Part shown: in pieces, positions 1,581 to 59,667 of the stretch | How positions within the stretch are numbered: the first letter of the stretch is position 1 | Layout: each line of letters starts with the position of its first letter | DNA from: Scenedesmus sp. PABB004 | Taxonomy: Eukaryota | Direction: 5' to 3' | Assembly (NCBI GenBank): GCA_014905635.1 | Contig: CM026548.1 | Coordinates: 1,054,001-1,118,000, forward strand | Length of the DNA: 64,000 nucleotides | Position numbers and translations under genes: made by a program | The notes under the pieces: generated by a model | What the model was told of the DNA's origin: nothing | The model's database searches: none | What the model saw: only the letters and a program-made list of their open reading frames with translations

Positions 1581-4500
1581 TCACTCGTCGGCGGCCTCGT
1601 CCGCCGCGGCCGGCGCCTCGGCGGGCACCTCGTCCGCGTCGGCGAGCGGCTCCTCAACGTAGTTGGTCTCAAACGCGTCCTGCGCGCCGCGGCAGGGCGC
1701 GGGGCGCGGGGCGGGCGGGCGAGCGGGCGGGCGGCGCGGGCCCGTCAGCCCCGCGGCGCCGCGGCAAGCGCGGCGCCGAGAGCAGCGCGGCGCCGAGAGC
1801 AGCGCGGCGCCGAGAGCAGCGCGCGGGCGGGCCAGACGCGCGCGGTGGCGAGAGCAGCGCGCGGGCGGGCCGGGCGCGTGTGGCGTCGCGGCGCGCGGCG
1901 CGGCGCCGGGGCGCGGCGCGGCGTCGGCGGTCACCTCTGGCACCGCGTAGAGTCGCAGCAGCTCCTTGTTGGGGTCCTTGACCAGCAGGTAGCGGCCCTC
2001 CGGCTGGGCGAGCAGCATGTCGACGAGCGCGCGCACGACGCCCCAGCAGTGGTCGGGCGAGAGGCTCATCTGGGCCGCGAGGTCGCGCGGCTTGGACGTC
2101 TGCGCGGGCGCGCGTGAGGGCGCGGCGCGGGGGCGGGTGCGTGAGGGCGCGGCGCGGGGGCGGCGTGAGGGGGCGCGCGTGGGAGGGAGGGGGAGGCCCG
2201 GCGGCGGCCGCGCGGCCGAGGGGCAGCCGAGCGGCGGGCAGCGCGCGCGCGCGTGCCGCCGCCGGCGCGCCTGCGTGCCGAGGATGACGTGGTTGGCGTT
2301 GTCCTTGGGCCCCGCGCGGCTCACGTAGCCGAGCTTGATCAGCTCCGCGCCGCCGAGCAGCGCGGCCATCGTCCACCTGCGCGGCGCGGCGCGCGCAGTC
2401 AGCGCCCGGCTCCCATTTGCACCGCGCCGGCGACGACGGGGCGGCGCGCGCGCGCCCCTCCCCGCGGGCGCCGCTGAGCTCAACCCCGCCCGCGCCGCGC
2501 CCCGGCCCCGCCCCTGACCCCCGCCGCTGCCGGCCTCACTTGGCGATCTTGGTGAGGTTGTTCTTCGTCTCAAACGCGAGCACCGCGCCGCGCTGGCTCT
2601 CCAGCTTCTTGCGCCAGTCCGTGGCGCGCAGGTCAAACTCGTTCAGCGCCTGCGGCGCCGCCACGCCGCACCCAGGGCGACAGGCGTGTCGTGTGTTGGT
2701 GTGCGTGTTGTGTGGGTGGGTGGGGGGGGGGGGGGCACGGCGCGGGCGCGCGCCGCGGGGCGCGCGGGGCACGCGGCAGCGCGTCGCCGCGCGGCGCGGC
2801 GCGCCCCGGCCGCCCGCCGCGCGGCGCGACGGGGTCTGTCCCCTCCCCTGCCGGCGCGCGCACGGCGCACACCTTGATTGCGAGCAGCTGGTCCTCGCCC
2901 TTGTTGTTGATGACCGCGTCGACCTCGCACCGCACCACGATGTCCACGCCCGCCTCGGGGTTGAGCGACCAGCGGCGGTACCTGCGCGCACGCGCGGGCG
3001 TGGGCGGGCGCAGGAGCGGGGGGCGTGAGCGCGCGGGCGTCGCGTCGGCGGGCGCAGCAGGGAGGGGAGATCAGCGGCGCGCGGCCGGGCGGCCAAGTGG
3101 CGTGGCACGGCGAGCAGAGCGGCGCTCACTTGTAGCCGACGCTCGCGAGCTCCTCGCCCTGCCCGGCAAAGGGGTTGGGGTTGCCCAGGCTGAACCTGGC
3201 CGGGCGGGGGCGGTGGGGCGGCGGAGAGACGCGGGCGGTCGGGGCCGCACCGCGCCGGCGCCCGGCTCGCCCGGGCCGTGGCGTGGCGGCGGCGGCGGCG
3301 GCACGGCGGCGGCGGCGCGCACTTGTTGCCGTCGTGCGCGAGGAGCTGCTGGCTGAGGTGGCGGTTGACCGCGGTCGCCTCGAGGCTGAGCTGCTGCACG
3401 CCGTTGATGTTGTCCTTGTCCTCGGGCACCTGCGCGGCGCGCAGTGTGTGGTGTGGTGTGGTGTGTGAGTGTGAGTGTGCGTGCGTGTATGGGCGAGCGT
3501 GGGCCCCGGCCGACCGCGGGCGCCGGCCCTCCGCCCGCCCTCCTCCCTCCGTGCCGCCCCTCCCTCCCTCCCGCGCCCCGCCGCGCGCCGCCGCGCGCCC
3601 CGCCCCGCCCCGCGCCGCGCCGCGCACACACCTGCTCCGGCGCGGTCTCGTTCACGGTGAGCTGGTCGAGGCTGCCGCCCTCGCGCTTGTCGAAGAAGAG
3701 CTTGTCCCCCACGCGCGTGACGACGACGTCCCAGCTGTACACGCTCTTGCCGGCGCACATGATGGTCGTGAGGATCGCGTCCGTCGCAAACACGCGCGCC
3801 GCGTCCTCGCTCGCGAGCGACCTGCGGGCAGGGGGGAGGGGCGGCGCGGCGCGGCGCGGCGGCGCGGCGCGTGAGGCGTGAGGCGGAAAGGGCGTGAGGG
3901 GCGTGGGGCGCGGGGCGCGCTGGACGCGCGGCTGCCCCGGCCGGGCGCGGCTGCTCCCCCGCCACACAGCGTCGTCGCTGCGCCGGCCGGCGCCGCTGCC
4001 CCCGCAGGCGGGCGGGCGGGCGGGCGGGCGGGCGGGCGGGCTCACCGGATGATGGGGTCGTCGCTGGTTGAGACGCTGCGGAAGACACGCTTGCTGCGCA
4101 CCAGGGGCTTCTCCTGGCGCGTGGTGAGCTTGTCGTACGCCCTGCGCGGGGAGGCGGCGGCGGCGCGTGGTGCGGGGCGTGGGCGGGTGCGGGCGCGGGC
4201 GCCGCCGCCGCCGCCGCGCGGCGCGCGAAACAAACACAAACAACAGTGACAACATGACAGACGGCGGCGCTCACTTGTCGTAGTACTCGAGCGACCCCGC
4301 GGCGTGCAGGTCCTCGGGCGCGCCGACGGAGCAGTTGAGCTTGGCGAGGTTCTGGAAGGGGATCTGCTCCTTGACCGCCCACTCGGGGCGGATGTCCACG
4401 CTGCTGCTGTACTGCAGCTGCTGCTGCGGGTGTTCCGGGCGGGCGTGTGCAGGGGCGGGCGCGGGGGCGGGCGGGGCGGGGGCGGGCGGGTGAGCGCGGG

Positions 4501-5568
4501 CGTGTGCGCGCGTGCGGGCGCGGCGGCGCGGCGCGCGGCGGCGCCGCCTGCGCACCCGCTGCTGCTCGCGCCAGTGCATGTTCTGCCACGGGTTGCGCTT
4601 CTGCTGCTTCTGCGGCGCCGCCGCGCCCTCGCGGCGCTCGCGCTCGGCGCGCGCGGCCTCGCGCTCGCGGCGCTGCTGCGCGAAGCGGTTGGCCGGGAAG
4701 CGCCGCGCGCCGAAGCGCGTCGCCTTGGCGGGGCGGTTGTCGACGAGGTGGAACGAGTCCTCCTGCGAGGCAGCAGCAGCGGCGACGGCAGCAGCAGCGG
4801 CGGCGGCGGCCGCGGGGTGTGTTTGCAGCGCGTGTGCGCGTGCGTGCGCGGGCTGTGCGCGCGGCGACGAGCCGAGGCGGCGGGCGCCCGCCGCCACCGC
4901 CGGCGCCGGCTGCTGCTGCAGGGTCGGCTGCGCCCCTGGGCCCCCGCCCTGGGCCCCTAAGCCCCACCCCCCGCCCCTCCCGCGCACCTCCTCTGTGTGG
5001 AAGAACTGGAACACCGCGTTGACCGCGCCCGGCTGCTGCCCGTAGCGCCCCTGGTTGCGCTGGTACGCCTGCTGCGTCCAGTCGGCGGCCTTGCCGAGCT
5101 TGTCGCTCTTGCTGAACGGCGCGAACGGCACGTCCTTGAGGTGCTCCGGCACGCTGCAGGGGCCCCAGCCGTCGGGGTTGTCCTGGATGTCGGGCACGCT
5201 GCGGCGCGGGCGCGGCACGCGGGCGCACCGCGGCGGCGGCGCGTGAGCGCCGCGTGAGAGCGGTTGCGGCGCGGCAGCTGCGTGTGTGGAGCGTGGGGCC
5301 CCAGACCGCTGCTGCGGCCGCGGCGTGCGCGCTGCGGCCGCCGGCCGGCGCGCCGCCCGGCAGCGGCGCGGCGCAGCAGCGGCGGCGGCCGGCGGCCGCG
5401 CGCGCCGCCCGGCAGCGGCGCGCGGAGCGAGCGCGTCGCCGCCCTGCGTGCCGCCGCCTGGGCTGTAGGTCCGTCACGCGCGCCCGGGCGCGGCCGGCGC
5501 AGGCGCGGGCGGCGCAGGGGCGGCCCATCAGCACCCGGCCCCACGCCGCACCTGTATGGCAGCGCCAT
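1581..5568 (-). CDS. EIF3D: Eukaryotic translation initiation factor 3 subunit D (about 13 exons)
   Basis: Spliced peptides [102 protein letters not shown] and [11 protein letters not shown] are eIF3d hallmarks. ATG at 5568, stop at 1581-1583. Confidence 0.95.
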
Positions 5569-5884
5569 GTTCACCACCTCCCAATCGTCCAGTTTGCCGG
5601 CGGTCCTGCCGCACTGGGCGACGCGCGGGAGTCGGCGGGGACGCCTGGCAGCGGCGGGCGCTGGTGATGGGAGGGCCGCCGGCGGGCGCGGGCGGGGCGG
5701 GCGGATCGACGGCCGCGGGCGCGCAGGGGCTGAGCGATGCGAGCGCGTGGGCGTCACCCAGCCCGCCACGGCGCGCGCCTGCAGCGAGCTTGAACCGCCG
5801 CACGCGCGCGCTCGAGCTCCGCTGCGCGCCCCGGGCGCCGGTCAGATCCCGCGCCGCCGCCACACCGCCAGCGCACTCACGCGC

Positions 5885-5888
<4 letters not shown>

Positions 5889-6175: not shown

Positions 6176-7296
6176 ATGATCCTGGCGCACGTGGCCGCGC
6201 TCAACGCGAAGCGCGTCGTGCTCGCGAGCGCGTCGCCGCGGCGCCGCGAGCTGCTGGGCAACCTGGGGCTCACGTTTGAGGCGCGGCGCCGCGCTCGGGC
6301 CGTGCTCGGCGGGCGGCGCCCGCGCCACCCGCCCGGCTGCGGCGAGCCCTGCACGCGCAAGTGCCGGGGCTCGCGCCGAGGCCTGCGTGCGCCGCCCGCG
6401 CCGCGCCGGCGCCGGCGCAGGTCGTGGTGTCGTCGTTTGAGGAGACGCTGCCGCACGAGCGCTTTGACCACGCCGCCGACTATGCGGTCGAGACGGCGCG
6501 CCACAAGGCGCTCGACGTCGCGGCGCTCTGCGCGGCCGACGGGCGGCCGCCGCCAGACCTCATCATCTCGGCCGACACCGTGCGCGCGCCGCGCCGCGCT
6601 GCGCCCGGCACGCCGGCGCGCGCGGCCGCCGCCGGCCGGGAGCTGCTGGCTCAGCGCGACGCGCCCCACGCGCGCAGATCGTGGAGCACGGCGGCTACAT
6701 CCTGGAAAAGCCCGACGACGCCGACCACGCGCGCCGCGTGCTCGCGAGGTGTGCGCCGCCGCGGCGACTGCCGCGCCGCGCCGCCGGGTGCCGCGCACCA
6801 ACCCGCCCCGCACCCGCCCCGCCCCGCGCCCGCCCCGCCCCGCGCAGCCTGAGCGGCTCGAGCCACCACGTGCACACGGGCGTCGCGCTCGTGCTGCCGC
6901 GTGCGCCGGCGGGCCCCGACGGCGGCCCGCTCTGCCGCACGTTCAGTGAGACCACCAACGTGCTGTTCAGCGACCTCCCGCCGCAGCTGATCGACGCCTA
7001 CATCGCCACGGGTGCGGCGCGGCAGCAGCGGCAGCGGCGGTGGCGGCGGCAGCAGCAGCACGCACGCGCGACTGCGCCGCACGCCCGCCCGGCACGCCGC
7101 CGCGCTCACCCCGCCGCCGCCGCCGCTGCCGGCAGGCGAGCCGTTTGGCAAGGCGGGCAGCTACGGCATCCAGGGCGCCGCGGCGGCGTTTGTGCGCGGC
7201 GTGGAGGGGTGCTACTTCAACGTCGTGGGCTTCCCGCTGCACGCGTTCAGCGCGCAGGTCATGGCGCTGATTGACGAGGGCCTGCTCACGCTCTGA
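6176..7296 (+). CDS. Maf-family nucleoside triphosphate pyrophosphatase (YhdE/ASMTL-Maf type), 5 exons
   Basis: [49 protein letters not shown] and NVVGFPL motifs. ATG at 6176, TGA at 7294-7296. Confidence 0.93.
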
Positions 7297-7374: not shown

Positions 7375-7698
7375 TGCCGGCGCGGCCCCCGACCCCTGGC
7401 CAGCCGCTCGCGCATGGGCCCCCGTCGGACGGCCACCGCGCCGCGGAGCGCGCCAGCGCGCCCGGCGCACAGCAGCCGCCGCTGCTCGCAGCAGCTGCGG
7501 CGTGCGCTGTGAAGGACGCGAACAGCGCAGCTCGGGGCTCGTGATCTCCGCCGGCAGCATGGATTTCAGGCGAGCCGGCGGCGCGGGGCGCCGCCATCAG
7601 CAGCAGCGCGGGTGCCGCCCCGCCCTCTCAGCGGGGCAGGGGCCGCCCGCCGCCGCGGCTGCGTGCTGGACTTAGGCAGCTCGGTCATTGAGCGAGCA

Positions 7699-10696
7699 AT
7701 GCGCGCCAGCAGCCGCCCGCCGGAGGCGCCCCCGCTGCGCAGCAGTGCTGCCCGCCGCAGCGGCGCCAACCGCCGCCGCCGCTGCATCGCCGCCGCCGCC
7801 GGCGGAGTCCACAGGCTCAAGAACCTGGCGCTGGGCTTTGCCGTGGGCGCGGGCATCGGCGCGGGCGGCTGCTACGCCTACCTGAGCCGCCTGCCCGCCG
7901 CGCAGCCGTCGACGCTCGCGCGCGCGCCGTCGCTCGACGCGCTGCCGGGTGCGGCGGCGCGCGGCGCGGCGCGGCGCGGCGCGGCGCAGCGGCGGCCGCA
8001 CGTCGCGCGCCGCGCCGTGCGACCCCGGGCGCGCCGCGCCACAGGGCCCAAGCCGAGTGACGAGGCCTCGGTCTTCCGCATGCACTCCGCGTTCAAATAC
8101 GGTGCGCGCCGGCGGGCGGCCTCCGACACGAACACGCGCCGGCGCTGCCCGCGGCCGCGCGCGCGGCCGCCGCCCCGCGCCAGCCCCGCCGGGCCTGCCC
8201 CGCCCCGGCCCTTGTCCCCCTGCAACCAACAACCACAACAAAACACACAGCAACACAACGCCCAAACACACACAACAATACACACACCCGACAGGCGTGC
8301 CGCAGGGCGAGGCGCTGCGCTTCTACGAGGGCTACGTCGCCTCCGTCGACGGGCGCACGCGCAACCCCAAGTGGGTGCTCGAGCACGTCACCAAGGACTC
8401 CCTGCGCGGCGACGGCACGCGGTGCGCGCGCACGGAGGAGCGCCGCGCGCCGCACCCCGCCGCGCGCCGCGCACCGCCACAAAGCGCCGAGCCGCCGCGC
8501 CCGCGCGCCCCGCGCCACCCGCAGGGACAGCAGCTCTTTCTTTGAGGACCCCGGCCTGGAGCCGGCGCTGCGGGCCAAGCTGGACGACTATGCCGGCAGC
8601 GGCTACGACCGCGGGCACCTGGTGCGCCGCCGAACCGGCGGCGGCGCCGCGCAGCCGCAGCTGCAGCCGCGGCACGGCGGCGGCGCGGGCGCCCGCGTGC
8701 GGCGGCCTGCGGCCGCGCGCGCGCGCGCGGCGCGGCGCGAGCCGCGGCGCGCCGCCGCGCGGGCGCTCGCAGGCGCCGGCGGCCAACCACCGCGCGAGCC
8801 AGAAGGCGATGAACGACACCTTCTCCCTCTCAAACATCAGCCCCCAGGTCCGGCCACGGCACAGCCAGCTGGCGCCCGCCGCGCCGCGCGCGCGCCGCCC
8901 CCCGCCCCGCGCCGCGCCGCCAGCCCCGCGCCGCGCTCCCCGTCGCTGGGCCCGCCGCGGCGTCCCGTGCGGCGGCGGCGCCGGCCCTAAACCTCTTGTT
9001 CTCTCGTGCGCGCTGTTCCTGAACAGGTGGGCCCGGGGTTCAACCGAGACTACTGGGCGCGCTTTGAAAAGTTTGTCAAGGACGCCGCCAAGGCGCGCGG
9101 CGCGGCGCGGCGCGGCGGGTTGTGGCTTTTGTGCCTGCGCGCCCAGCCTGCTGCCTGCGCGGCCAGTGCCAGCTGCCGGCCGTGCCGACGCCCCGTCTCC
9201 TCCCCGTCTCCTCCCCATCCCTCCGCCCCAGGTGTCAGACGGCGTGTTCATTGTGACGGGGCCCCTCTGGCTCCCGCAGCCCGACGGCCGCAGCGGCGGC
9301 GGCTGGGAGATGCGGCACCCCATGATCGGTGCGCGCCCGCCGCGCCGCGGGGCGGAGCCCGCCAGGGCGCGGCGCACCACGCCGCCGCCGCCGCCGCCGC
9401 CGCGCGCAGGCAAGCCGCCGCAGCTGGTCGCGGTGCCGACGCACTTTTACAAGGCGCGCGCATGCGCGCCGCGCCGCCCTCTCCCCGCCCCCGCCGCCCG
9501 CGCCGCCCGCCCCACGCGCGCCCTGCCCCGCCCCGCCCCGCCGCCGGCTCCCCGCCCGTGCCGCTCGCCTCACGCGCGCCCTGCCCCGCCCGTCCCGCCC
9601 GCGCCCCTGGCCAGGTGGTGCTCGCAGACAACCCGAGCGGCAAGCACGGCGGCCACGCCGCCGCGGTCGGTGCCTGGGTCATGCCCAACGCGCCCATCGA
9701 CCCCGCGACGCCGCTCACCGCGTTCACCGTGCCGCTCGACGCGCTCGAGAGCGTCGCGGGTGCGGCGGCGCGTGCGCGCGCGCGCCGCCACGGCGCCGCC
9801 GGCGCGGGACGCTGCCGCGGCGGACCGCCGCGCCCCGCAGCGCCAGCGCAGCGCCGCGCGCGCTCAGACCTCCACGGGCCGTGGCCCGCGCCGCGCCGCG
9901 TCACACCGCCGTGCCGTAGGGGCGCGCTTCTTCCCCGGGTTTGTCAACGCCCGCCGCCGCGCGGCGCTCGACGACGCGGCGCTGGGCTGGCAGGCGGAGG
10001 GCCGCGCCGCGCTGCGCGTGCTTGACCGGCTCAGCCTCGCGCAGGACCAGGCGGCCATCCTGCCGCGCCAGGCGGCGGGTGCGAGACGCGCGGCATGCCC
10101 CACAGGGCGGGGGCTCGCGACGCCCTGGCCGTTGGCCGCGCCCCACGCGCGCGCCTCACCCGCTGGCGCCGCCCGCCGCCGCCCGCGCTTGCCGCCGCAG
10201 ACCCGCTCGCGCTCGCCGCAGGCGGCGGCGGCGCCGCGGCGCCAGAGCAAAAGCAGAAGCAGAAGCCGGGGGGCAGCAGCAGCAGCAGCAGCTGCAGCAG
10301 CAGCAGCAGCAGCAGGGCGGCGCGGTGCAGCGGCAGCCCAAGACGGGTGCGGCGCGCGCGCCCCGCGCCCCGCGCCCCTCGGCCGCCCTGACCAACGCGC
10401 CCCGCCCTCGCGCGCGGGCGCTGCCGCCGCCAGTTGATGGCCAGGGCGCGGTCCACCTCTGTGACATCGTCTCATGCTCACTGCCGCCGGAGAAATGGTG
10501 GGAGGCGGGCGGCGGCGCCGGCCAGCGCGGCGGCGGCCGCGGGCGCGGCCGCGGCGGCGGCCCCGCGTGGCAGGGCAGCCGCGGCGGCGGCGGCGGGCGC
10601 GGCGCCGCGCAGGAGGCGGCGGTCGTGGCCGCAGCCGACGGGGGCGGCGTGGACGCGGGCGAGCAGGCTGGCTCGGCTGCGAGCGCTGACAGCTGA
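7699..10696 (+). CDS. ENDOG: Endonuclease G / Nuc1-like DNA/RNA non-specific nuclease, probably organellar
   Basis: YVASVDGRTRNPKWVLEH, DYAGSGYDRGHL (DRGH active site), APAANH, DTFSLSNISPQ, GFNRDYWARFE, IVTGPLWLP, VAVPTHFYKVV and HLCDIVSCSLP. The N-terminus is Arg-rich with a hydrophobic segment. The start codon is inferred. Confidence 0.9.
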
Positions 10697-11544: not shown

Positions 11545-12448
11545 TGCTGCCGCTGCCGCCGCCGCCGGTGGCGTCAAAGGGGCGGGGGAAGTAGCTGAAC
11601 GCGCTGCTCAGCCGCTCATAGGTCAGCTCGTCGAGGTGCATGGACACGCTGCAGGCCATCTGGCAGAGCTGCGCGCGGGCGGGGCGGGGATTTGGGGGGT
11701 CAGCGGAGCCGGCTGGTGCGCGCCGCCGCAGCCGCCGCGAGGGCGGAGGGGCGGAGAGGGGCGGCCTGGTGCGCTGCGCGCTGCGCGGCGTGCCTTTGAG
11801 ACCGACGCGAGCGCGCCGTGCGCCTCTGCGATGCGGAGAAGTTCGTTAAAAGCAGGCAACGGCGGGGCGCTCTGCGTCGCCACGCAGTGCTGCGTGAGGG
11901 TGTCGACGATCTCGTGGAGCTTCTCGGGGCTCGCCTTGGCGGCGCCCAGCACCTGCGGCGGCGCGGCGCGGCGCGCGCATGGTCGGAGGCGCAGCAGCGG
12001 CGTGCGCCGCGCCACTGCGCTTCCGCCGCCGCGCCGCTGCGCGGCGTGGCGCGCGCACGGTCGGCGGCGCAAGCAGCGGCGTGCGCCGCTGCCACTGCGC
12101 TGCCGCCGCCGCGCCGCTGCCGCCCGGCCTGGCCAGGCCGCCACCATCGCTGGGGCTTCGCTGGCGCGAGTCGCCGACGGGCGGCGCGGCCGGCCCCCGG
12201 ACAGGCCAATGCACGTGTGCCGCATGCTGCTGCTGCCGCCCCGCGCTGCCGGCGCCCCGGTGCCCGCTCGCAGCCCGCCACGGCCACGCGGTCCGCAAGG
12301 CGCAACCACGGCCCGCGCACCTGGTCCCACAGCACGTCGCTGCGCGCCCCGGCGGAGCCGGCCTGCGCGCCGCTGCTGGCGAAGGCGCGCAGCGCCGCAG
12401 GGCCCCCCCGCTCGCCGCCAGCACGCGCCGGCCGACGCCCTGCAGCAT
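11270..12448 (-). CDS. Small putative mitochondrial protein with a PPR-like helical motif and a poly-Gly tail
   Basis: Spliced exons give PAFNELLRIAEAHGALASVSK|LCQMACSVSMHLDELTYERLSSAF. The presequence-like start MLQGVGRRVLAAS..ALRAFASS needs one extra base in a homopolymer near 12393-12399. Confidence 0.55.
11470..11543 (+). repeat. (GCC)n microsatellite, encoding poly-Gly on the minus strand
   Basis: Long perfect CCG run. Confidence 0.9.
11965..12122. repeat. Tandem duplication of about 79 bp (two copies) in the PPR-like gene
   Basis: ggcgcgcgca(t/c)ggtcgg..agcagcggcgtgcgccgc..gccactgcgct..ccgccgccgcgccgctgc occurs twice in a row. Confidence 0.75.
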
Positions 12449-12734: not shown

Positions 12735-15700
12735 ATGAGCTCCAGCGGCGGCCCCGAGCGGGCGCGCGCTGGGCGCGGCAAGGTAGGCGCGGGCCGGCGG
12801 CAGCAGGCGGCCTGGCACGCCTCTGGGGGCGCCCCAGGGGCTGCGGAACGCACGGGCGTGGCGCTCCGGGCGCGCCCCAGCCCCCGGCCAAGCGGCAGCG
12901 CGTGCGGCGGCCGCCGCGGCGCGGCGCGTGCGGCAGCGCGCCCGCTGCTCGGCGCGGCGCGGCGCCGCCGGCGTGGGGCCCGGCGCCGCCGGCGCGGCCG
13001 CCCAGGCGCCCCCGCCCGCCGCGCCCGCCGGCCCGGCGCGCCGCCGCCGCCCGCGGCGGCCACGCGGGCGCGCGCCGCCGGCGCGCGCCCCGCACCGCTC
13101 GCCGCGCGGCCGCCAACCGCCGCCGGCGCCCGCCCGCCGCCTCGCCGCGCGCTGCGCCGGCGCCTCACGACACCCGCCGCCGCCGGCGCTGCTGCTGCTG
13201 CTGTCCCTGTGCAGGGGCTGCTGAAGGAGAAGCTCGAGCTCGAGCGCGTCAAGGGCAAGGACGGGCGCGTGCGCGTGACGCTGAAGCCGATCGAGGAGCA
13301 GCTGACCTTTGACAAGGCGCGGCGCCGCGCGGGGTGGCGAGTGTTGCGGGCAAGCACAACAGCGAGCGGCTGGCCGGCGAGCGGCTGGCCGGCGGTGGCG
13401 GCCGTACGGCCGCCCCCCGGCGGGCCAGCTCCCCTCCCCCTGCTCCCCCCCCCTCCCTCAACCCACCCTGCTCGCCTCCCTCCCCGTCCGCCCCTCTCGT
13501 CCCCTAAACCCTGTCCCCGCGCACCCCTCCTAAACCCTGGCAGGGCTTCTACGTCTTCATCCGCGCCCTGCAGCTCCTCCGCTCCCAAAACGAGGGCGTC
13601 GTGCTCGTCGGCCTCGGCGGCGCGAGCGGGAGCGGCAAGACCGCGTTCAGCGAAAAGGCGCGCCGCGGCGGCGGCGGCAGGGCGGTGGCAGGGCCCCGCG
13701 GCAGGGGCCCCGCGGCGGCGGGGGCGCGGGCGGCGGCCGGCGTGCGCGTCCGCGGGCGCCCGGCCGCGCCCGGCGCGCCGCGCCCGCTAAACCCTCCCGC
13801 CCGCCCGCCCTCAAAACCCCAAACCCCCGTCGTCACCAGGTCAAGGACTTTATGCCCGGCATCGCGGTCATCTCCATGGACAACTACAACGACGGCAGCA
13901 AGGTCGTCGACTCCAACTACGACGGTGAATGGCTGTGCGCGCGGGCTGTGCGGCGGCCCGCCCGCCGCCGCGCGCGCGCGCGCACAGCCCCCGCCCGCCC
14001 GCCCACGCGCGTCTGACACACACACACACACACACACACACCGCCACACGCCACACACACGCCACACACACGCCACACCGCACACCAAACACGCCCCCCG
14101 CCAGACCCCCGCCTGACCGACTACGACCTGCTGCTCACCAACCTGCGAGACCTCAAGGCCGGCCGCCCCGCAGAGGCGCGGCGCACCGCCGCGCCGCGCG
14201 GCGCGCCCGGGCGCGCGCCGCGATATCGCGCGCGCCGCCGCGCGCCCGAGCCCCCGCCGCTCTTGGGCTCCCGCCGGCGCCGCCGACCGAACAGCAAGCC
14301 CGCCGTCCCGAAGCCCTGGCGCGCCCGCGCGCAAAGCCCCGCCGCCGCCGCACGCGCCGCTAAACCGCGCCGCACACGCGCAGGTCCCGATCTACGACTT
14401 CAAGTCGTCGTCGCGCGTCGGCTGCGTGCCGCTGCCCGTCCCGCCCGCGCGCGTGGTCGTGATCGAGGGCATCTACGCCCTCAGCGACCGCCTGCGACCC
14501 CTGCTCGACCTGCGCGTGTCCATCACGGGTGCGGCGCGTGCGGCGCGTGCGGCGCGTGAGCGGCGGGTGTGCGCGGGTGCCTGCGGCGCGGCGGCCGCGA
14601 CCGCCCCCGGGCCCTCCGCGGCTCGGACGGGCGTGCATGTGCGTGCGCGGCGCGAGACGCACACGCCTCCTCCCCCGTCCAACGCTTCCACACACACGCC
14701 CCTCTTGCAGGCGGCGTGCACTTTGACCTTATCAAGCGCGTCCTGCGTGACATCCACCGCAGCGGGCAGGGGCCTGAGGAGATCATCCAGCAGGCGCGGC
14801 GGGGCGGCGGCGCGGCAGCGGGTCGGCTGGGCCTTGGGGCGCGCTGCAGCCAGCGCGCGCGCGCGCGCGCCGCAGCCCCGCCACACAGCGTGGCGGCCCA
14901 CCTCCCGCTGCGCCTGCCCCCCCCCCCCCACACACACACGCACGCGCAGATCACGGACACCGTGTTTCCAATGTACAAGGTGCGCCGCGCCCCGCCCAAA
15001 CACCGCCGCCCCGCCCAAACACCGCGCGCCGCCCAGCACCGCGCACCGCCTCACACCCCCGCCGAGTTAACGGGGTAACACCCCCCCCTCCCCCGCCTCC
15101 CCCGCCTCCCCCGCCTCCCCAGATCTACATCGAGCCCGACCTCGCCGGCGCGCAGCTGCGCATCGCCAACGCGTTCAACCCCTTCACGGGGTTTATGAAC
15201 GCGACCTACATCCTCAAGGCCCGCCGCGACGACGGCGGCGGCGCCGACGTCGGGCCCACGCAGGACGCCGCGCTGTCGGTGCTCGGGGTGGGTGCGCGCG
15301 CGCGCGCCGCCGCCCGCGCTGCCGCCCGCACTCGCTCGCCGCTCGCACTCGCCCGCCGCTCGCACTCGCCCGCCGCTCGCACCCGCCCGCCGCCGCCTCG
15401 GACGTCACAAGTCACAAAAGAAACACATGATAACAAACATAGCACGCCCGCGCCGCCCGCCGCCCGCAGGCGGGCGCGGCCGTGAGCACCGAGGCCGACA
15501 TCTACGACATCCACCTCCTCCCGCCCGACGAGGACCCCGAGACGTGCGCGAGCTGGCTGCGCATGCGCAACCGGGACGGGCGCTACACGCTGATGTTTGA
15601 GGAGTGGGTCACGGAGGGCGACTTCATCATCTCGCCGCGGTGCGCCGCGCTGAGCGTTTGTTTTGATATCGAACAGCTTGAAATTGGGTTGAGTTTTTGA

Positions 15701-16794
15701 GCACCGAGGACGCGAGCCTGCCCGCGGCGCGGGGCGAGCCCCCTCTCGCCGCGCGCCCGGCCCTGGCGTCGCCCCAACGCCGCCGCCGCCGCTGCCGACG
15801 CCGCACCCGCGCCGGCGCGCCGCGCCCGCGCCCGCGCAGCATCCAGTTTGAGGTCAGCGTGCGCGTGCTGGGCGGGCTGATGTCGCTCGGCTACGCGGTC
15901 GGCACGGTCATGCGCCGCACCTCCACGCTCGTGCGCGCGCCGGGCGGCGGCGGCGAGGAGCTGGCGGTCAAGTTTGACGACGTGGAGGGCCTCGGGCGCT
16001 TCGTGCAGGCGCGCGCGGCGGCGGCGCGCGGCGGAGCGAGATGCGGGCGGGGCGCGCGCGCGCGCGCAGGGGCGGGGCGGCCGCCGCGCCCACGCCGCCG
16101 CCGCGCCGCACCGCCACCACCAACACCGCCACCGCCGCCGCCGCCACCGCCACCGCCACCAACACAGGTGCAGGGCAAGGACCGGGACCGCGTCGCGGCG
16201 GCCGCGGCGGCGCTGGGTCTGACCGAGTTCATTCCCCGCAGCTACATCGAGCAGGTGCAGCTGGCCAAGCTCACACAGAGCTTTGCCGCGTTCACCGACG
16301 ACGTGCGGCGGCGGTTCAGCCTGTCGACAAACCCCGCGCACGGCGGCGGCGGCGGGGACGAGACGCCGCTCGGCGGCGCGTCGCCGGCGCGGGCGCCGCC
16401 GTTTGGCAGCAGCCCGCTGGGCTTTGGCGGCAGCCCGCTGCCGCTGCGCGGCGGCGGGGGCCGCGGCGCGCGCGGCGGCTGCGCGCCGGGCGGGCGGGGC
16501 CGCCCGGGCTCGGCGGCTGGGCGGCCGGCGGCGCCAGCGACGACGACGACGAGGCGCTGCTGTCGAGCAGCGCCCCGGTGCGGGGGTCGCAGCCGATCGC
16601 GATCCACGGCGGCAGCGCCGGCGCGCGCAAGCGCAACGGAGGCGGCGCCTCGCCGTCCGCGGCCAGCCCCAGCCCCGGCGCGGCGACGGGCGCTGCGGCG
16701 GCGGCGGCGGTCGCCGGCAGCGCCAGCAGCGCCGCGAGCGGCGGCCCCGACGGCAGCCCGCCCGCGCCCTGGGACGGCGGCGGCGGCGGCGGCG

Positions 16795-17703: not shown

Positions 17704-19269
17704 ATGGTTGACCGCACTGTGCTCGTCTGGATCGTCGGCGCCAACGTGCTGGCGGCGGGCATGCTCTATCAGCGCCTGGACTCGCTGGGCTACGGCATGC
17801 CGCTCATCAAGCACCACGTGGAGGGCGTCCTGGAGCGCTTCGGCCTCGCGCACGCGGCCTACCCGCAGTGCGGCATGCTGGAGGTGCGCAGACGCGCCGG
17901 CGCGCCCCGGCGGCGGCGGCGCCGGCGGTTGCGGCGGGCGGCGCTGCCCGCGGCAGCGCCGCCGCGGCGCGGCGGGCGCGGCCACACCCCCGCCCCTCCC
18001 CCGCGCAGGACACGATGTACATCCTCACCAGCAGTCGCGTGGTGCACCCGGACGGCGTGCGCCCGGGCGCGAGTGAGAGCCCGCTCCGCGGGCGCCCGGG
18101 CGCGCGCCGCGCCCGCCGCCGCGTCCCCCGCCCCCAACCCTCGCCGCCGCGCGGCCGCGCCGCAGTCACGGTGCGGGGCGGCAAGATCGCGGCGGTCGAC
18201 GCCGCGGTGCCGGCGCGGAGCCGGTACCGCGTGATTGACTACGGCTACGCCGCGATCTCCCCGGGCGTCATCGACGTGCACGTGCACCTCAACGAGCCCG
18301 GCCGCGAGCACTGGGAGGGTGCGCGGCGCCCCCGTGGCCCCGCCGCGGCCGCGGCGCCAGGGGCGGCGGGGGCCGCAGGCGGCGGCGGGGCCTGTCGGCC
18401 GCGGCGGCGGCGGCCGCGCGCGGTCAGCGCCGCCGCCGCGGCCGCAACCGCCGGTGCCGCAGGCATGGAGACGGGCACCGCCGCGGCGGCGGCGGGCGGG
18501 AGCACGACGGTGGTGGACATGCCGCTGAACTCGTTCCCCTGCACCACCAACGCGAGCCTGCTGGCCGACAAGATGCGCATCGCAGAGGTGCGGCGGCAGC
18601 TGAACCCTGGGCGCCGGCCTGCCGGCCGGCCGGCCTCCCTGCCAGGCCACACAGACCGCCGGCCTCCCTCGCCGCGCGCGACCCCCGCCGCGCCCCTCGC
18701 CCCGCGCGCGCGCCCGCCGCGCGCAGGCCAAGGCCAAGGTCAACGTGGGCTTCTGGGGCGGGCTCACGCCCGCCAACGCGGACCGCCCCGACGTGCTGTG
18801 GGGCATGCTGCGCGGCGGGGCGTTCGGGCTCAAGGCCTTTGTCGCCCCGAGCGGCATCGATGACTTTCCAAACGTCTCCCGGTGCGCGCCGCGCCCGGCG
18901 CGCTCGGCGCCGCCAGCCGCTGGCCCCACCCGGCCCCACCCGTCCCGCCGCGCTCCCTGTCTGGACCGAGCGTGTGCACGCACACACGCGCGCTCACGCC
19001 CTCCCTCCCCCGCCGTCACCTCCCCTGCCCTCCCCACCCCGTGGCAGGAGCGACGTCGCGGCGGCGATGCACTTCCTGCTGAGCAAGGGCGCGCCGCTCT
19101 TCGTGCACGCCGAGCTCGTCACGCCCGTGGAGCCGCCCGAGGCGCGCCGCGCCGCCGCGCCGCCCCCCCCCCCCTCGCGGCCCCCCTCCGCATGCGGAGC
19201 CCGTCCCCGCCGCCGCGACGCCCCGCCGCCGCCGCCGCCCCACGCCCCGCCGCCGCCGCCGCCCCACGC

Positions 19270-19300
<31 letters not shown>

Positions 19301-45300: not shown

Positions 45301-45890
45301 GCGCAGGCGTACATGCTCAACCCGGCGATCTACAGCGCGCACCTCAAGCTGCACCCGCTCATGGTGCTCGTGACGCTGGTGATCGCGGAGCACAGCCTCG
45401 GCGTGTGGGGCCTGCTGCTCGCGGTGCCGCTGACCGTGTTTGCGCTGGACTACCTCATACGCTACCCGGACTCCAGCGTCACAGAGGCGCGCGCGCGGCG
45501 CGGCGCGGCGCGGCGCGGCGCGGCGCGCGATAGTTTTTGGTCTGTCGTTGTGCTGCCCGCGTGCTGCCTGCGCGGGCTGCGCCGGGGCGTCGTGCGCTGG
45601 GCGACCGACCGGGCGCGCGTGCGCGCGTGCGTGCGCGTCTGCCTGCCGCGGCGCGCGCGAGCCGCGGGCCGACGCGCGCCGCTGCCGCTGCCGCGTCGCG
45701 CCGCGCCGCGCAGGTCGGCGCCAAGGAGCTCGAAAAGGTGATGCTCGCGACGCACGACGAGGGCGACCACGGCCCGCTGCCGGGCGCGCCGGGCGGCGGC
45801 GGCCCCGGCGGCGGCGGCGGCACGGGCGGCAGCAGCGGCGGCCCGGGCGGCAGCAGCAGCGGGGGCGAGGGGTACCCCCTCATCATCTGA
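42399..45890 (+). CDS. AI-2E (UPF0118/PerM) family membrane transporter
   Basis: Multiple TM segments; QARIALVNTALTALGMWAL, FICSFIPIAGVIIS, HFVEAYMLNPAIYSAHLKLHPLMVLVTLVIAEHSLGVWGLLLAVPL match the AI-2E C-terminal signature. The 5' structure is uncertain and a frameshift occurs near 43600. Confidence 0.85.
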
Positions 45891-49918: not shown

Positions 49919-52900
49919 ATGGACAGGCTAGGAGGCCTGCACAGCTCGCCATCCGCCCAGCTCTGCAGCCGGCGCCAGCAGCAGTCGTCGCTCGCCCCGC
50001 GCGCCCGGGGCCCCGCCCGCGCGCACGTGGTGGCGCTGCGCCCGGCGGCCGCGCCGACCGCGCCAGCAGCCGCCGCCGCGCCGCGCTGGCGGCCCGCGCC
50101 GGGCGGCAGGAAGGTATGCGCGGCGGCTGCGCGGCGCAGCGCGGCGCGGCGCGGCAGCACGCGCGCGCACGCACTCACACGCGCGCACTCACACACGCGC
50201 CCGGCGCCGCCGGCGCGGCAGGTGCGGCTGGCGCCGCCCCGCGCCGTCACGATGTCGGGCGCCGACAGCGTCGCGTCGAGCGAGCCGTCGGGCGTGCAGC
50301 CGCTGGAGATTGAGATTGACAACGAGAGCGAGAAGGACGTGACGCTCATCCGCGTCGAGGGCCGCGGCCAGGGCGCGGCGCTGCTCGGCGCGCTCAGCAG
50401 CGGGCTGCAGCAGTTTGGCGTCAACGTGCGCTCCGCCGCGCAGCAGAGCGAGGACGGCAAGGTCCTCAACGTCTTCAAGGTCACCTCCAGCGACGGCGGC
50501 AAGGTCCCCAAGGTGCGGGGCGGGCCCCGCGGGGCGTGCCCGGCGCGGGCCGTCGCCGGCGCGGGGCGTCGCCGGCCGCCGCCGCCGCGCGGCGCGGGCC
50601 GCCGAGCGCGCCCCGGCCGCGCGCGCGCCGCGGCCGCGCAGGACAAGTGGGAGGGCCTGCGCGACCTGGTCCAGAACATGGCGGCGACGACCAAGGTCTC
50701 CAACCAGCCCGCCATCTACGGCCAGCTCGCCGCGGCGGATGTGATGCGCCTCAAGGGCGAGGCGCCCGCCGGCCTCACCACGGGTGCGCCGCCGCCCGCC
50801 GCGCCGCGCCGGCACGGCGGCCCCCGCGCGCCGGCGCCGCGCAGGGGCGCGGCGCGGCCGGCGGCCGACCGCCGACGCGGCGCCGCGCCGCGCCGCGCTC
50901 CGCCCGCCGCGCGCAGGCGACGCGGTCGCGCTGGAGCTCGCGGCGGCGGAGATGGCGCAGGCGGCGGCCGAGTTTGTGGCGCTGGAGAAGGAGATGGACG
51001 TCCTGCGCGCCAAGGGCGCCGACGGCGGGCTCATTGCACTCAAGGACACCGCGCGGTGCGGGGCAGCGCAGCGCAGGGGCCGCCGCGCAGGGGCTGGGCA
51101 GGGCGGCGCGCCCTGGGCTGGCGGGGACGCGGCGGCCGGCGGCAGCGCGCAGCAGCGCGGCAGCAGCAGCGGCGGGCGGCTGAAGGCGCCGCCGCCGCCG
51201 CCGACCCCGCAGGCAGGAGGCGGCGGCGCTGCTGGAGCGGCGCATGGCGGCGATGGAGGCCTGCCTCGCGGCGCGGCGCGTGATCGTGGCGCCCGAGGCG
51301 CCCAAGACTGCGGCGGAGCTCATGGAGGAGCAGATGAAGGCTGCCGTGTCGGCGCCGCCGCCCGTCACGAGCACGGGCCCCGCGGCAGGCAACGGCTACG
51401 AGATCCTGCTGCAGGCGCGGCGGCGCGCGGGGACGCGCGGCGCGGGGGCGCCCGTCTCGCCCCGCCCGCCCGCGCCCCGCCTCCTCCTCTGCGGGGAACG
51501 CTCTCGCTCCCTCGCTCCCTCGCTCACCACGCGCGCGCCGCCGCCGCGGCCCCGCCGCCCCTGCGTCCCCGCCCCCGCCGCGGCCACAGGCGTTCAACTG
51601 GGAGAGCCACAAGAAGGGCTGGTACAAGTACTGCCTGCCCCAGGTCGCCGAGTGGGCGAAGCAGGGCTTCACCTCCATCTGGCTCCCGCCCCCGAGCGAC
51701 AGCGTCAGCCCCCAGGCGCGCCGCCGCGCACCGCACCGCGCGCCACGCCTGCCGCCCTCTCGCGCCGCCGCCCGCTCCCCCCGCCCGCGCGCTCACCGCC
51801 GCGCGCACGCCGCCGCCGCGCCGCGGCGGCCATGCGCAGGGCTACCTGCCGCGCGACCTGTACAACCTGGACAGCGAGTACGGGAGCGAGTCGGAGCTGC
51901 GCGCGCTCATCCAGGAGTGCCACGCGCACAACATCAAGGTCATTGCCGACATTGTGGTCAACCACCGGTGCGCGTGTGGCGCTGCTGGGGCTGCAGGGGC
52001 GTGGGCGGGCGGCGGGCGGGGGCGGGTGGGGGCGGGTGGGTGGTGGGCGGGCGGGGCGGAAGGGGCGCAGGGGGCGCGGGGCGCGTGCGTGGCCGGGGCG
52101 TCGTCCCGGCCGCCGGCGCGCGCGCGGGGCCGCCCCGCCCACGCCGCCCGCCGCCGCCGCTGCCGCATGCGGCGCGCGCCGCAGCTGCGCCACCTACCAG
52201 AGCCCCGACGGCAAGTGGAACAAGTTTGGCGGCCGCCTCGCGTGGGACAACAGCGCGATCTGCAACAACAACCCCGCCTGGGGCGGCAAGGGCGCGCACA
52301 AGACGGGCGACGACTACCCCGCGGCGCCCAACATCGACCACACGCAGGAGAGCATCCGCACGGACGTCATCGAGTGGCTCCGCTTCCTCAAGAACAGCAT
52401 CGGCTTTGACGGCTGGCGCTTTGACTTTGTGCGCGGCTACAACGGCCAGTTCTGCAAGATCTACACCGACGCCACGGTGCGGCGCTGGCGGCGCCGGCGC
52501 CGGCGGCGCCGGCGCCGGCGCGGGCGTCGCGCTCGCGCTTGCGGCGAGCGGGGGACACGCAGGCACGCGGCGCGGCGTGCCGACTCGTCCGCCGCCGCCG
52601 CGCGTCCGTGCGGCCGCCGCGGGCGCCCCGCAGGTGCCTGAGATGGCGTTTGGCGAGTACTGGGACACCTGCGAGTACACGGACGGCGTGCTCAACTACA
52701 ACCAGGCGCGGCGCGGCGCGGCGCGGCTCGCGCGTGCTGGGCGGCCGTGTGCGCCGAGAGGGGGGAGGGGAGCACGCTGGCCGCTGGCGCGCCGGCGGCC
52801 GCGCGCCCACACGCCGCCGCGCACGCTCGCGCGCGCAGGACGGGCACCGCCAGCGCACGGTGAACTGGGTCGACTCCACGGGCGGCACCAACGCCGCGTT

Positions 52901-53351
52901 TGACTTCACGACCAAGGGCATCCTGCAGGAGGCCCTCGGCCGCAGCGAGCTCTGGCGCCTCGTCGACGCGCAGGCGCGGCGCGCGCGCCGCCCCGCGCTG
53001 CCCACCCACGCGCCGCCGCCTGCTGCGCCCCAGCGCCGCCTGCAACTCCCCGCGCGCGCCCCTGACCCCCGGCCGCCGCCGCCGCCGCGTCCGCGCGCTC
53101 ACCGCGCAGGGCCGGCCGCCCGGCTTTGTGGGCATGTGGCCGAGCCGGGCGATCACGTTCATCGATAACCACGACACCGGCAGCACGCTCAACCACTGGC
53201 CCTTCCCCAGCAACCACCTGCAGGCGCGCGCGCCGCCGCGCCGCCCCGCGCCCGCGCGTCCCTCCAACCTCGCGCCCGCGCCGCCTCGCGCCCCTCCAAA
53301 CACAACACACAGACACACACACCCACACACACCCACACACACACCCACACA

Positions 53352-53431
<80 letters not shown>

Positions 53432-54006
53432 CTCTGCTCCCCTCCCTCTCCTTCCCTCCCCCCCCCCTCCCTCCCGCGCAGGAGGGGTACGCCTACATCC
53501 TGACCCACCCCGGCACGCCCTGCGTGTTCTACGACCACCTCTACGACTCCGGCGGCCTGCGCCAGGTGCGCACGCCCCGCGCCGGGCGCTGGGGCAGGGG
53601 CGGCGGAGAGCGCGGCGCGGCAGGGAGCGCGCGGCGCGGCAGGGAGAGCGGCAGAGCGCGCGGCGGCCCCGCGGCGCCGCGCCCTTTGCCGACCTGGCCG
53701 GCACAGCACGCTCACGCGCACACACTCACACACGCACGCTCGTCGCGCGCGCCCGCGCCGCAGTGCATCCTGGACCTGCTCGAGGTGCGCCAGCGCCACG
53801 CACTCGACTGCCGCGCCAAGGTGCTCGTACGCAAGGCCGCGGGTGACGTCTACGCGGCGACCGTTAATGACAAGATCGCGATCAAGATCGGCCGCGGCGA
53901 CTGGTCGCCCAACAGCGCCAAGATCGACGCCCCCGGCGGCAAGCAGTGGGTCAAGGCCTGCAGCGGGCACAACTGGGCGTGCTGGGAGGTCGGCGCGCGC
54001 GCGTGA
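49919..54006 (+). CDS. Plastid alpha-amylase (GH13, plant type) with an N-terminal ACT-like domain and coiled coil
   Basis: [110 protein letters not shown]. Confidence 0.94.
53300..53427 (+). repeat. (CA)n microsatellite in an amylase intron
   Basis: Long CA/CACC tract read directly. Confidence 0.95.
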
Positions 54007-57391: not shown

Positions 57392-57415
57392 AAAAACGAA
57401 GCGGGGCGACCAAAA
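57392..57415 (-). terminator. Pol III oligo-T terminators downstream of tRNA-Ala
   Basis: T4 (57412-57415) and T5 (57392-57396) on the minus strand. Confidence 0.6.
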
Positions 57416-57432
57416 GCTGCAAGGGCAGCGAG

Positions 57433-57505
57433 TGGAGTCGGAGGGTATCGATCCCCCTACCTCCCGCATGCTAAGCGGGCGCTCTACCATCTGAGCTACG
57501 ACCCC
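57433..57505 (-). tRNA. trnA-AGC: tRNA-Ala, anticodon AGC (IGC)
   Basis: GGGGTCG TAGCTCAGATGGTAGAGCG CCCGC-TTAGCAT-GCGGG AGGTA GGGGG-ATCGATA-CCCTC CGACTCC A. 73 nt, G3:U70 Ala identity pair, eukaryotic Ala ATCG T-loop. Confidence 0.97.
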
Positions 57506-58095: not shown

Positions 58096-59667
58096 TCACT
58101 TGCTGCCCGCGCGCTGCTTGAGGCGCAGCGCCTCGCCGACGCGCTGGATGCCGTTGCCTGTGTAGGGGTTGGGCTTGCGCACCGCGCGGATCGCGGCCGC
58201 CGCGTTTGTCACCGTCGCCTTGTCGGTGCCGTAGAGGTACATGAGCGTGGGCTTGACAAAGAACCCCAGCACGCCTGGCGGGAGCGGGAAGATGCACGCG
58301 CGCGTGTAGCCGACCTGCGCCAGTGCGCACGCGCGGGGGGGGGGGGGGGTGACGCCGGGGGCGCGTGACGCCGTGGGCGCGCGGCGCGCGCGTGCCGGCG
58401 GGCGTGCGTGCGTGCCACGCCGCGCCGCGCCGCGCCTTGAGCCGCACAGCGCGCGCGGGCGCCTTGTGGGGGTATGTGATGGTGCTCTTCTCGGCCTCCG
58501 CCTCCCAGATGATGCGCCGCTTGGGCGCGGCGGCGCCGCCCGCGGCGTCGGCGTCGCCGCGCCGCGCCGCGAGCGCCGCCGCGACGGTTGCGTCGGGGAC
58601 GGGCTCCATGCGGTACCCGACGCCCTGCACGGTCAGGCCCACCAGGTAGCCCTGCTGGGGTTTAGGGGTTCAGGGGTCCAGGAGGGGGGTGCGTGGCGCC
58701 GGCGTGAGCAACGGCGGCGGCCGCGGGGAGCTGCAGGCGCGGCAGCAGCTGCGGCGGCGCGCGGCGCGGCGCGGCCGCGGGCGGGGCGCGCCTGCGTGAC
58801 GCCGTGCACCGCGTTGTCTATGTGCGTCTGGATGCCGCGCCAGCAGCGCTTGCTGGGGCTGGCGAGCAGCAGCAGCGACCCCGTGCCCGGGCCCGCCGCG
58901 GCGTCGGCGGCCGACTGCGCGTGGCACTGCCACGCCACGAGGCCCGTGGGGTCCAGGAACGAGAGCGGCAGCGACGTGCTGCCAGCCTTGCCTGCGCGGC
59001 CCGCGGGCAGCGGTCGGCGCGCGCCGGCCGCCGCGCCGCGCCGCGCCGCGCGCCGCCGATCGCCCCGCCGCGCCGCGCGCCCCGCGCCGCGCGCCCGGGG
59101 CGCACCCGTGAGCGTGAGCGCGCCGCCCTGCAGCGCCACGTCCACCTGGGGCGGCACGCGGATGACCATGCGGTTGATGCGCCCGTCCCGGGCGGGCTTG
59201 CGGAAGCGCGGCAGCGGCCGCGGCGCGGCGCCGTGCGGGGCGAGCTGCCGCAGCCCCGCCGTCAGCTGCAGCTGCGCCGCCGCCGCGACCTCCGCCGCCG
59301 CGGGTAGCGGCGGCAGGCGCGCCGGCGCGCGCAGCGACTGCAGCACGCCCCCGGCCGCGCCGCGCAGCCACCACCCGGCGTGCTCGTGCCGCCCGGCTGC
59401 CGCCTGCGGCCAGCCCAGCTGCTGCTGCTGCTGCTGCTGCTGCTGAACCTGCTGCCCCTGCTGCTGCTGCTGCTGCTGCCCCTGCTGCTCCTGCTGCCGC
59501 TGCGGCCGCCGGGCGGCGGCGCTGATCTCCGCGCCGCCGCTGCCGCCGTCGCGCCCCGCGTGCGCGCCGGGCCCGCCCGCCAGGCAGCGCGCCAGGCAGC
59601 GGGCCACGAGGCAGGGCCCGCCAGCCGCCCAGGCGCGCTGGGCGCCGAGCGCTGCGCTCGGCAGCAT
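58096..59667 (-). CDS. MRPL6: Mitochondrial ribosomal protein uL6 with a long Gln-rich presequence
   Basis: IRVPPQVDV..LTLTGKAG, HIDNAVHGVTQGYLVGLTVQGVGYR, LKVGYT, LYLYGTDKATVTNAAAAIRAVRKPNPYTGNGI. Confidence 0.9.

Follow-up and report, generated by a model that had tools for sequence, protein, structure and literature searches.

Frequent GC-AG introns with a strict exonic-AG donor context, predicted from protein homology in a 64-kb window of the green alga Scenedesmus sp. PABB004

One stretch of 64,000 nucleotides from Scenedesmus sp. PABB004 (GenBank assembly GCA_014905635.1, contig CM026548.1, positions 1,054,001 to 1,118,000 of the forward strand; hereafter the window) raises the question of whether its genes are really spliced at a large number of GC donors and whether this calls for a spliceosome that reads 5' splice sites differently. 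The window, which belongs to the nuclear genome of a green alga of the family Scenedesmaceae, has a G+C content of 77–81% in each 4-kb bin (79% overall) and contains zero N. A first-pass annotation had listed 25 GC donors at exon joins, and all of its coordinates were found to read as listed: at each of the 25 sites an exonic AG is followed by GCGCG (23 sites) or GCACG (two sites, 11793 on the minus strand and 25550). With 86 occurrences of AGGC[GA]CG across both strands, the motif by itself is unspecific; hence the deciding question is where the exons actually join.

Junctions were placed by a free-donor scan in four genes, encoding an alpha-amylase, an AI-2E-family transporter, the Mg-chelatase subunit D (ChlD) and a uridine kinase/CYTH protein. 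Homologues were fetched with single-exon queries (10–16 proteins per gene), and all donor positions between roughly -45 and +75 nt were considered, whatever their dinucleotide, with the acceptor held to AG. Every donor was paired with every AG acceptor that left both exon frames open, and the joined peptide was scored as the mean BLOSUM62 value against the homologues in a semi-global alignment. The optimum fell on GT in 31, on GC in 14 and on another dinucleotide in one of the 46 informative junctions, in zones where GT accounts for 3.0% of the dinucleotides, GC for 21.8% and the others for ~75%. By gene, the optima were six GT and five GC in the amylase, 15 GT and one GC in ChlD, five GT and five GC in the uridine kinase/CYTH gene, and five GT and three GC, plus the odd case at 43389, in the AI-2E transporter. 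All 14 GC optima were already among the listed sites, and no unlisted GC donor appeared in the four genes. Many of the homologues sit on contigs too short for introns (for example P0004, 642 amino acids on a 3192-nt contig) and are probably transcript-derived; that these proteins of relatives read straight across the junctions is an indirect pointer to intron removal. The full amylase model, with its 11 introns and five GC donors, is identical end to end to a public protein of 645 amino acids (P0001), and the best database match of an amylase exon was 100% identical and carries the NCBI name AMY2 [Scenedesmus sp. PABB004]. In its public annotation, the strain's amylase exons are already spliced together at these GC donors.

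At 43389 the single scan optimum lay on neither GT nor GC. Homologues read TIP/DIVREG.DF at this position (here and below the slash marks the exon end), and a phase-1 GC donor would provide the first base, G, of the codon for Asp. Within 43584–43602, the sequence coding for DIVRE, which is conserved in relatives, begins right 3' of the AG at 43583, and the frame is then one base short in the run of five G at 43597–43601. This reflects either a homopolymer error of the assembly or a real base loss that is bypassed by the acceptor at 43597, with the loss of five residues. The donor is identical under either reading of the acceptor.

In the other genes, the Pfam profile coordinates of single exons were compared across the junctions. 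Seventeen of 25 junctions flanked by the same family were continuous, without gap or overlap (four with GC and 13 with GT donors). The continuous GC junctions were those at 2270(-), 6281, 26318 and 45107, four of the five GC junctions that could be tested in this way; the fifth, 40686, falls at -2 among the remaining eight junctions, where gaps or overlaps made the comparison uninformative. Many short exons gave no match in the single-exon Pfam search. In the mitochondrial-type uL6 gene, chain 8a22_Ae of the solved Polytomella mitoribosome aligns with the exon upstream of 58435(-) (...AVRLK) up to residue 174 and with the downstream exon (VGYT...) from residue 175. For 58791(-) the sole outside support is a motif shared with solved L6 chains (Table 1), the upstream exon being aligned only at residues 66–93, where the numbering is not decisive. 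On protein evidence, 20 of the 25 predicted GC junctions have support from outside the window, be it the homology scan, Pfam coordinates or the solved mitoribosome. With a GC start and an AG end at predicted exon junctions, these introns would be U2-type GC-AG introns; the U12-type donor motifs, /(A or G)TATCCTT and GCATCC, were not found at any of the 25 sites.

The exons might nevertheless have been mis-joined, the mRNAs using nearby GT donors or the stretches not being introns at all; the apparent GC donors would then merely mirror the ubiquity of GC dinucleotides in such GC-rich sequence. The abundance of the 7-mer motif speaks for this, as does the tendency of a signal-free two-strand hidden Markov model (HMM) to over-call GC donors (80 of 158). 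Moreover, five sites have no outside support, one of which (11793) looks wrong, and another (19142) can be read through in frame: its 177 nt contain no in-frame stop, so that retention would preserve the frame. However, the free-donor optimum lay exactly on GC at 14 sites, where the best GT alternative fell short by 10–46 BLOSUM62 units or was absent altogether, and the Pfam and PDB coordinates were continuous across four more sites. An in-phase GT within 60 nt that scored in the range of the verified GT donors (≥2.6) was present at just three of the 25 sites, and its use would remove conserved residues. As far as protein homology can tell, mis-joining is already refuted for about 20 sites, and as an account of the whole set it is very improbable. 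The signal-free HMM was rejected for the tally, given that it merged genes and over-called GC donors, most of them placed some codons upstream of a good GT; it was kept only as a seed for exon frames.

Once the junctions were placed, donor and acceptor matrices were trained on the homology-placed junctions and used in a two-strand splice-signal HMM covering the whole window. Its raw output comprised 149 introns, 36 of them with GC donors, and the version that allowed GC donors was better than the GT-only version by 388 nats. Of the 25 listed sites the model found all but 25550, which was lost where two genes had been wrongly fused. A further twelve GC donors that it proposed were rejected: ten for poor signal or implausible length (17–53 nt, or >400 nt), and those at 7570 and 56763(-) because they lay in such fusions, one of them running across the tRNA gene. 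In the curated tally, 25 of 127 introns (19.7%) begin with GC, or ~16% when only the 20 supported sites are counted; some GT introns with weak signals were filtered out, which brings the true denominator nearer to 135. Thus about one intron in five in the window is of the GC-AG class, far above the usual ~1%, as the first-pass annotation had held; its rough figure of one in six (25 of about 140) is borne out by the ~16–20% obtained here.

The GC donors proved to be much more uniform than the GT donors. At the homology-placed junctions (43389 included) an AG occupied positions -2/-1 in 15 of 15 GC donors, whereas only 11 of the 31 with GT had it (Fisher p=1.7e-5), and in the window model 35 of 102 GT donors followed an exonic AG. 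All 15 GC donors carried GCG at +3 to +5, whereas the homology-placed GT donors had G at +3 in 30/31, C at +4 in 25/31 and G at +5 in 30/31. Thus a GC donor corresponds to the local consensus G/GTGCG with T replaced by C, limited to the strongest exon ends, and the remainder of the donor is closer to the consensus than in the GT introns, as compensation for the mismatch would have it. The earlier description of GT donors as mostly GTGCG with tolerance of other exon ends agrees with these counts. Its fixed pattern for GC donors held in part: AG precedes all of them and GCGCG is found at every supported site, but the variant GCACG depends on the two least supported sites.

In donors without an exonic AG, GC was found in 0/20 (homology-placed) and 0/67 (model) cases. 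In the context AG/G_GCG, by contrast, C occupied +2 in 15 of 25 homology-placed and in 24 of 52 model donors, and 28 model donors in the context AG/GTGCG retained T. Inside introns C/(C+T) is 0.88; since C at +2 reaches only about half, there is still a preference for T at this position in the most permissive context, and outside that context T is apparently indispensable. These values fit the earlier proposal of GC pressure compensated by exonic AG, although the statement that GTGCG turns into GCGCG wherever an exonic AG compensates was too strong: about half of such sites keep GT, depending on the gene. Nearly all the GC donors are in phase 0 (14 of 15 homology-placed; 24 of the 27 listed by the model before two artefacts were removed). 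A is found at 1.6% of third codon positions, and the phase-0 excess arises because exons end in AG mainly as a whole CAG, AAG or GAG codon.

The GC donors are unevenly spread among the genes (permutation test, p=0.015). Genes rich in them are those of the amylase (5 of 11 introns), uridine kinase/CYTH (5 of 10), the AI-2E transporter (4 of 9) and uL6 (2 of 3); ChlD (1 of 16), eIF3d (1 of 12), ATP synthase gamma (0 of 6) and the response regulator (0 of 6) are poor. The unevenness was also present inside the AG/G_GCG context (permutation p=0.003), where GC was used at 1/8 of the permissive sites in ChlD and 0/3 in ATP synthase gamma, against 4/4 in the AI-2E transporter, 5/6 in uridine kinase/CYTH and 5/7 in the amylase. 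This might hint at an effect of expression level, GT being more strongly selected where expression is high, or at local differences in GC pressure.

High frequencies of GC-AG introns have already been published for other GC-rich algae, so that the present case is a confirmation and an extension to a further lineage. According to the accessible text of the respective papers, GC-AG introns make up 39.6% in Aureococcus anophagefferens, 22.2% in Micromonas pusilla and 7.7% in Chlorella sp., an abundance that the authors tie to GC content (Iwata & Gotoh 2011, PMC3033335); 56% of a curated set of 241 junctions from Emiliania huxleyi, part of them confirmed by reverse transcription-PCR (RT-PCR) (PMC4028052); and 14–17% in pelagophytes (bioRxiv 10.1101/2024.10.30.620910). 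The mean share in 121 plant genomes is given as 1.2% (PMC6310983). With these algae the window shares a very GC-rich nuclear genome, with a G+C content above ~65% in every bin, AG acceptors and, as far as 64 kb can show, a high GC-AG fraction (~20% here and 7.7–56% there). It differs in belonging to the Scenedesmaceae (Chlorophyceae), in its even higher G+C content and in that one window was measured here. The all-or-none dependence on exonic AG was shown here, and it was not noticed in the available parts of the accounts of those algae. In animals and plants, GC donors have a tighter consensus, apparently compensating for the mismatch of +2 C to U1 (PMC1557818, PMC2490688). The introns of the window share with these U2-type GC-AG introns (see also PMC6310983) the AG acceptor, the tighter donor and the lack of a U12 motif, but they are about 20 times commoner and their consensus is AG/GCGCG instead of AG/GCAAGT. 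The U12-type introns (AT-AC, GT-AG and rare GC-AG with GCATCC) likewise have the option of a non-GT donor; the ATCC-type motif is not present here and the introns of the window are not members of that class. No description for the present lineage was found among ten of the 15 papers that name the strain (judged by title) or among the top 15 matches on GC-AG introns together with genus names, and the words 'splice', 'intron' and 'GC-AG' were not found in the accessible text of PMC12571836.

A different concern is that the C at +2 might be an artefact of assembly or base calling, a true T being systematically called C. The window does contain one probable one-base homopolymer error, in the G run at 43597–43601 mentioned above, so that the assembly may be imperfect. 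Nevertheless, the 28 donors of identical context that keep T are at odds with such an error, for which no cause acting at one intron position in half of these sites is known, and other GC-rich algae show an equal pattern that, according to the part of PMC4028052 available, was confirmed by RT-PCR in Emiliania. We regard this explanation as the least probable of those considered, slightly less probable even than mis-joining.

The canonical 5' end of U1 is AUACUUACCUG and the canonical U6 box is ACAGAGA. Most probably, the introns described here are ordinary U2-type GC-AG introns that GC pressure has made common and that a standard spliceosome tolerates at full-strength donors. GC pressure, through mutation bias and/or biased gene conversion, would push the T at +2 toward C; this C would survive only with AG at the exon end and G-GCG in the intron, where standard pairing with U1, and later with U6, would suffice despite the mismatch at +2. 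At all other donors selection would retain GT. The data themselves show the places at which the exons meet, the GC found there and its strict context; the direction of the change, from GT to GC, the driving force and the reliance on an unchanged spliceosome are what we infer. A contig search of metagenomes with the amylase alignment gave 80 loci with a best segment identity of 68%, none close enough for a comparison of orthologous introns; they were mostly intron-poor marine or sediment relatives.

The first-pass annotation had proposed a shifted 5' splice-site code, possibly with a variant U1, U6 or U1C. Under a code of this kind, a variant U1 5' arm, U6 ACAGAGA box, U5 loop or U1C would accept C at +2 (and at +4). 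The very high GC frequency would agree with it, and so would the consensus G/GTGCG, which departs from GTAAGT at +4 (C in 25/31) and +6. Were the spliceosome shifted in this way in an alga whose genome ranks with the most GC-rich known from eukaryotes, G/G(U/C)GCG would be the optimum, GC donors would be neutral or even under positive selection instead of barely tolerated, and the differences among genes would reflect regulated use, a scenario to which we give little credence. Full acceptance of +2 C predicts no confinement to AG/G_GCG, yet none of the 67 donors that lack an exonic AG has GC. It further predicts that C at +2 comes near the neutral 88%, but it reaches only 46–60% in the best context. 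The U1 of Aureococcus and of two Micromonas strains is identical to the consensus in its first 11 nt, as given in the accessible text of PMC3033335. A shifted code with variant U1, U6 or U1C would seem to lack precedent in the published GC-AG-rich algae and is not supported by the comparison with them; as an explanation of the window it is unlikely. An Rfam search of the window detected only tRNA at the gathering threshold and no small nuclear RNA at E≤1.

Several points weigh against the explanation by GC pressure and a standard spliceosome. Splicing at the GC sites is deduced from protein homology, and an unchanged spliceosome (U1, U6 and U1C) is assumed from other algae. Uniform mutation pressure does not explain the unevenness among genes within the permissive context. 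The donor tally covers a single 64-kb window and is partly circular, given that the GC-donor matrix was trained on AG/GCGCG only and is thus blind to GC donors of other shapes; in the free-donor homology scan, zero GC donors of another shape were found among the 46 junctions. Finally, the sites 9093, 9454, 19142, 25550 and 11793 have no outside support, the last one being doubtful.

The evidence for 9093, 9454, 19142 and 25550 consists only of the frame, the motif and the lack of a usable in-phase GT. At 9093 the sole in-phase GT within 60 nt scores -4.8. Three short exons of the endonuclease G-like (EndoG) gene gave no match in a PDB search at E≤10; the fourth exon, 3' of 9454, matches solved EndoG chains in an alignment that begins 16 residues in, short of the junction. 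The EndoG junctions would fit human EndoG well. For the allantoinase-like stretch around 19142, a PDB search gave no match at E≤0.01. At 25550 an ATG exon reading MGNLVSGPPKNS is joined in frame to a Snf7-family body, and there is no in-phase GT within 60 nt; its low signal score (1.6) is due to the training of the score matrix on GCGCG donors. The gene with the donor 11793(-) yielded no homologue. In the exon proposed there, 7 of the last 22 codons end in A or T, compared with 4% overall, and the splice-signal HMM was forced to add an implausible 45-nt intron in this area. Codons ending in A or T are unusually many at 11794–11860(-) (CCT GCT TTT AAC GAA CTT ... GCA ... TCA), inside the proposed exon; this stretch may be intronic, which makes the donor at 11793 doubtful.

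For gene prediction, the consequence is that gene finders limited to GT-AG introns would break about one fifth of the introns here, and in single genes nearly half, as in the amylase with 5 of 11. The window is also a natural titration of 5' splice-site strength, with C at +2 absent without exonic AG and present in about half of the donors at AG/G_GCG, and this pattern marks the point at which U1/U6 recognition, presumably of the standard kind, ceases to tolerate the change. A genome-wide version, compared with relatives of lower GC content (Tetradesmus), could measure both the threshold and the selection against GC donors.

Table 1. GC-AG introns of the window and the genes in which they and other introns lie. 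Scan values are mean BLOSUM62 scores of the GC optimum and of the best GT candidate.
Feature	Coordinates	Strand	Donor, evidence and remarks
GC-AG intron, eIF3 subunit D	2100..2270	-	CAG/GCGCGC; Pfam eIF-3_zeta 480/481 continuous
GC-AG intron, Maf-like gene	6281..6420	+	GAG/GCGCGG; Pfam Maf 23/24 continuous
Probable GC-AG intron, endonuclease G-like	9093..9231	+	AAG/GCGCGC; frame and splice-signal model only
Probable GC-AG intron, endonuclease G-like	9454..9614	+	AAG/GCGCGC; frame and splice-signal model only
Doubtful GC-AG intron, gene of no known family	11669..11793	-	AAG/GCACGC
GC-AG intron, uridine kinase/CYTH	13317..13543	+	Scan 83.2, best GT 73.4
GC-AG intron, uridine kinase/CYTH	13658..13839	+	Scan 145.4, best GT 129.6
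GC-AG intron, uridine kinase/CYTH	14176..14383	+	Scan 150.4, no GT candidate
GC-AG intron, uridine kinase/CYTH	14794..14949	+	Scan 147.1, best GT 106.6
GC-AG intron, uridine kinase/CYTH	16009..16167	+	Scan 94.3, best GT 78.6
Probable GC-AG intron, allantoinase-like	19142..19318	+	GAG/GCGCGC; model only
Probable GC-AG intron, Vps20/CHMP6-like (Snf7)	25550..25629	+	CAG/GCACGG; 3' of first exon
GC-AG intron, Vps20/CHMP6-like	26318..26412	+	Pfam Snf7 120/121 continuous
GC-AG intron, ChlD	40686..40837	+	Scan 241.1, no GT candidate; sole GC among 16 tested
GC-AG intron, AI-2E transporter	43389..43597	+	CCCAG/GCGCGC, phase 1; acceptor 43583 or 43597
GC-AG intron, AI-2E transporter	44192..44541	+	Scan 192.8, best GT 147.5
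GC-AG intron, AI-2E transporter	45107..45306	+	Scan 224.3, best GT 204.0; Pfam 273/274 continuous
GC-AG intron, AI-2E transporter	45487..45713	+	Scan 161.6, best GT 135.7
GC-AG intron, alpha-amylase	51415..51589	+	Scan 176.5, best GT 153.5
GC-AG intron, alpha-amylase	51716..51839	+	Scan 209.8, best GT 177.4
GC-AG intron, alpha-amylase	52706..52838	+	Scan 254.8, best GT 211.8
GC-AG intron, alpha-amylase	52974..53109	+	Scan 254.6, best GT 223.5
GC-AG intron, alpha-amylase	53224..53481	+	Scan 255.3, no GT candidate
GC-AG intron, uL6	58315..58435	-	Polytomella mitoribosome chain 8a22_Ae
GC-AG intron, uL6	58652..58791	-	HGVTQ/GY fits GV[ST]xG[FY] of solved L6 chains
eIF3 subunit D gene		-	Pfam eIF-3_zeta
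Maf-like protein gene		+	Pfam Maf
Endonuclease G-like nuclease gene		+	
Uridine kinase/CYTH protein gene		+	
Allantoinase-like amidohydrolase gene		+	
Vps20/CHMP6-like protein gene		+	Pfam Snf7
Cyclophilin-like protein gene			
Protein kinase gene			
DUF6823 protein gene			
ATP synthase gamma gene			
Mg-chelatase subunit D (ChlD) gene		+	
AI-2E-family transporter gene		+	
Mog1 gene			
LRR protein gene			
Type-B response regulator gene			
ACT-domain alpha-amylase gene		+	11 introns
tRNA-Ala(AGC)	57432..57505	-	Between LRR gene and uL6 gene
Mitochondrial-type uL6 gene		-	

About 20 densely packed green-alga genes were identified in the window from the translated model exons (Table 1); among them is also a presumable PGR5, recognised by eye without a Pfam match. 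Open reading frames are long in all six frames, as expected at such a composition. In the final model the coding sequence shows a strong three-base periodicity, with 96% G+C at codon position 3 and 52.5% at position 2. The genome of the matching strain is given in the accessible text of PMC12571836 as 39.8 Mb with 78.5% GC. Run-level matches to the window were two runs of freshwater-metagenome DNA contigs, with shares of 0.06–0.08, and no RNA run was among the matches.

Some minor features of the introns were also recorded. The lengths of three of them are divisible by three (2100–2270(-), 171 nt; 14794–14949, 156 nt; 19142–19318, 177 nt). The last GC-AG intron of the amylase gene (53224–53481) holds a long CA-rich microsatellite (CACACC/CA repeats) at 53290–53430. 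In the uL6 gene there is a tandem CAGCAG acceptor at 58652–58657(-), whose two sites (58655 or 58652) lie one Gln apart; the solved L6 chains favour the distal one. Outside the introns, CAG/Gln-repeat coding sequences at 62816–62910 and 163–254 gave sub-threshold Rfam matches to unrelated microRNA and small RNA families, which are compositional and do not represent genes.

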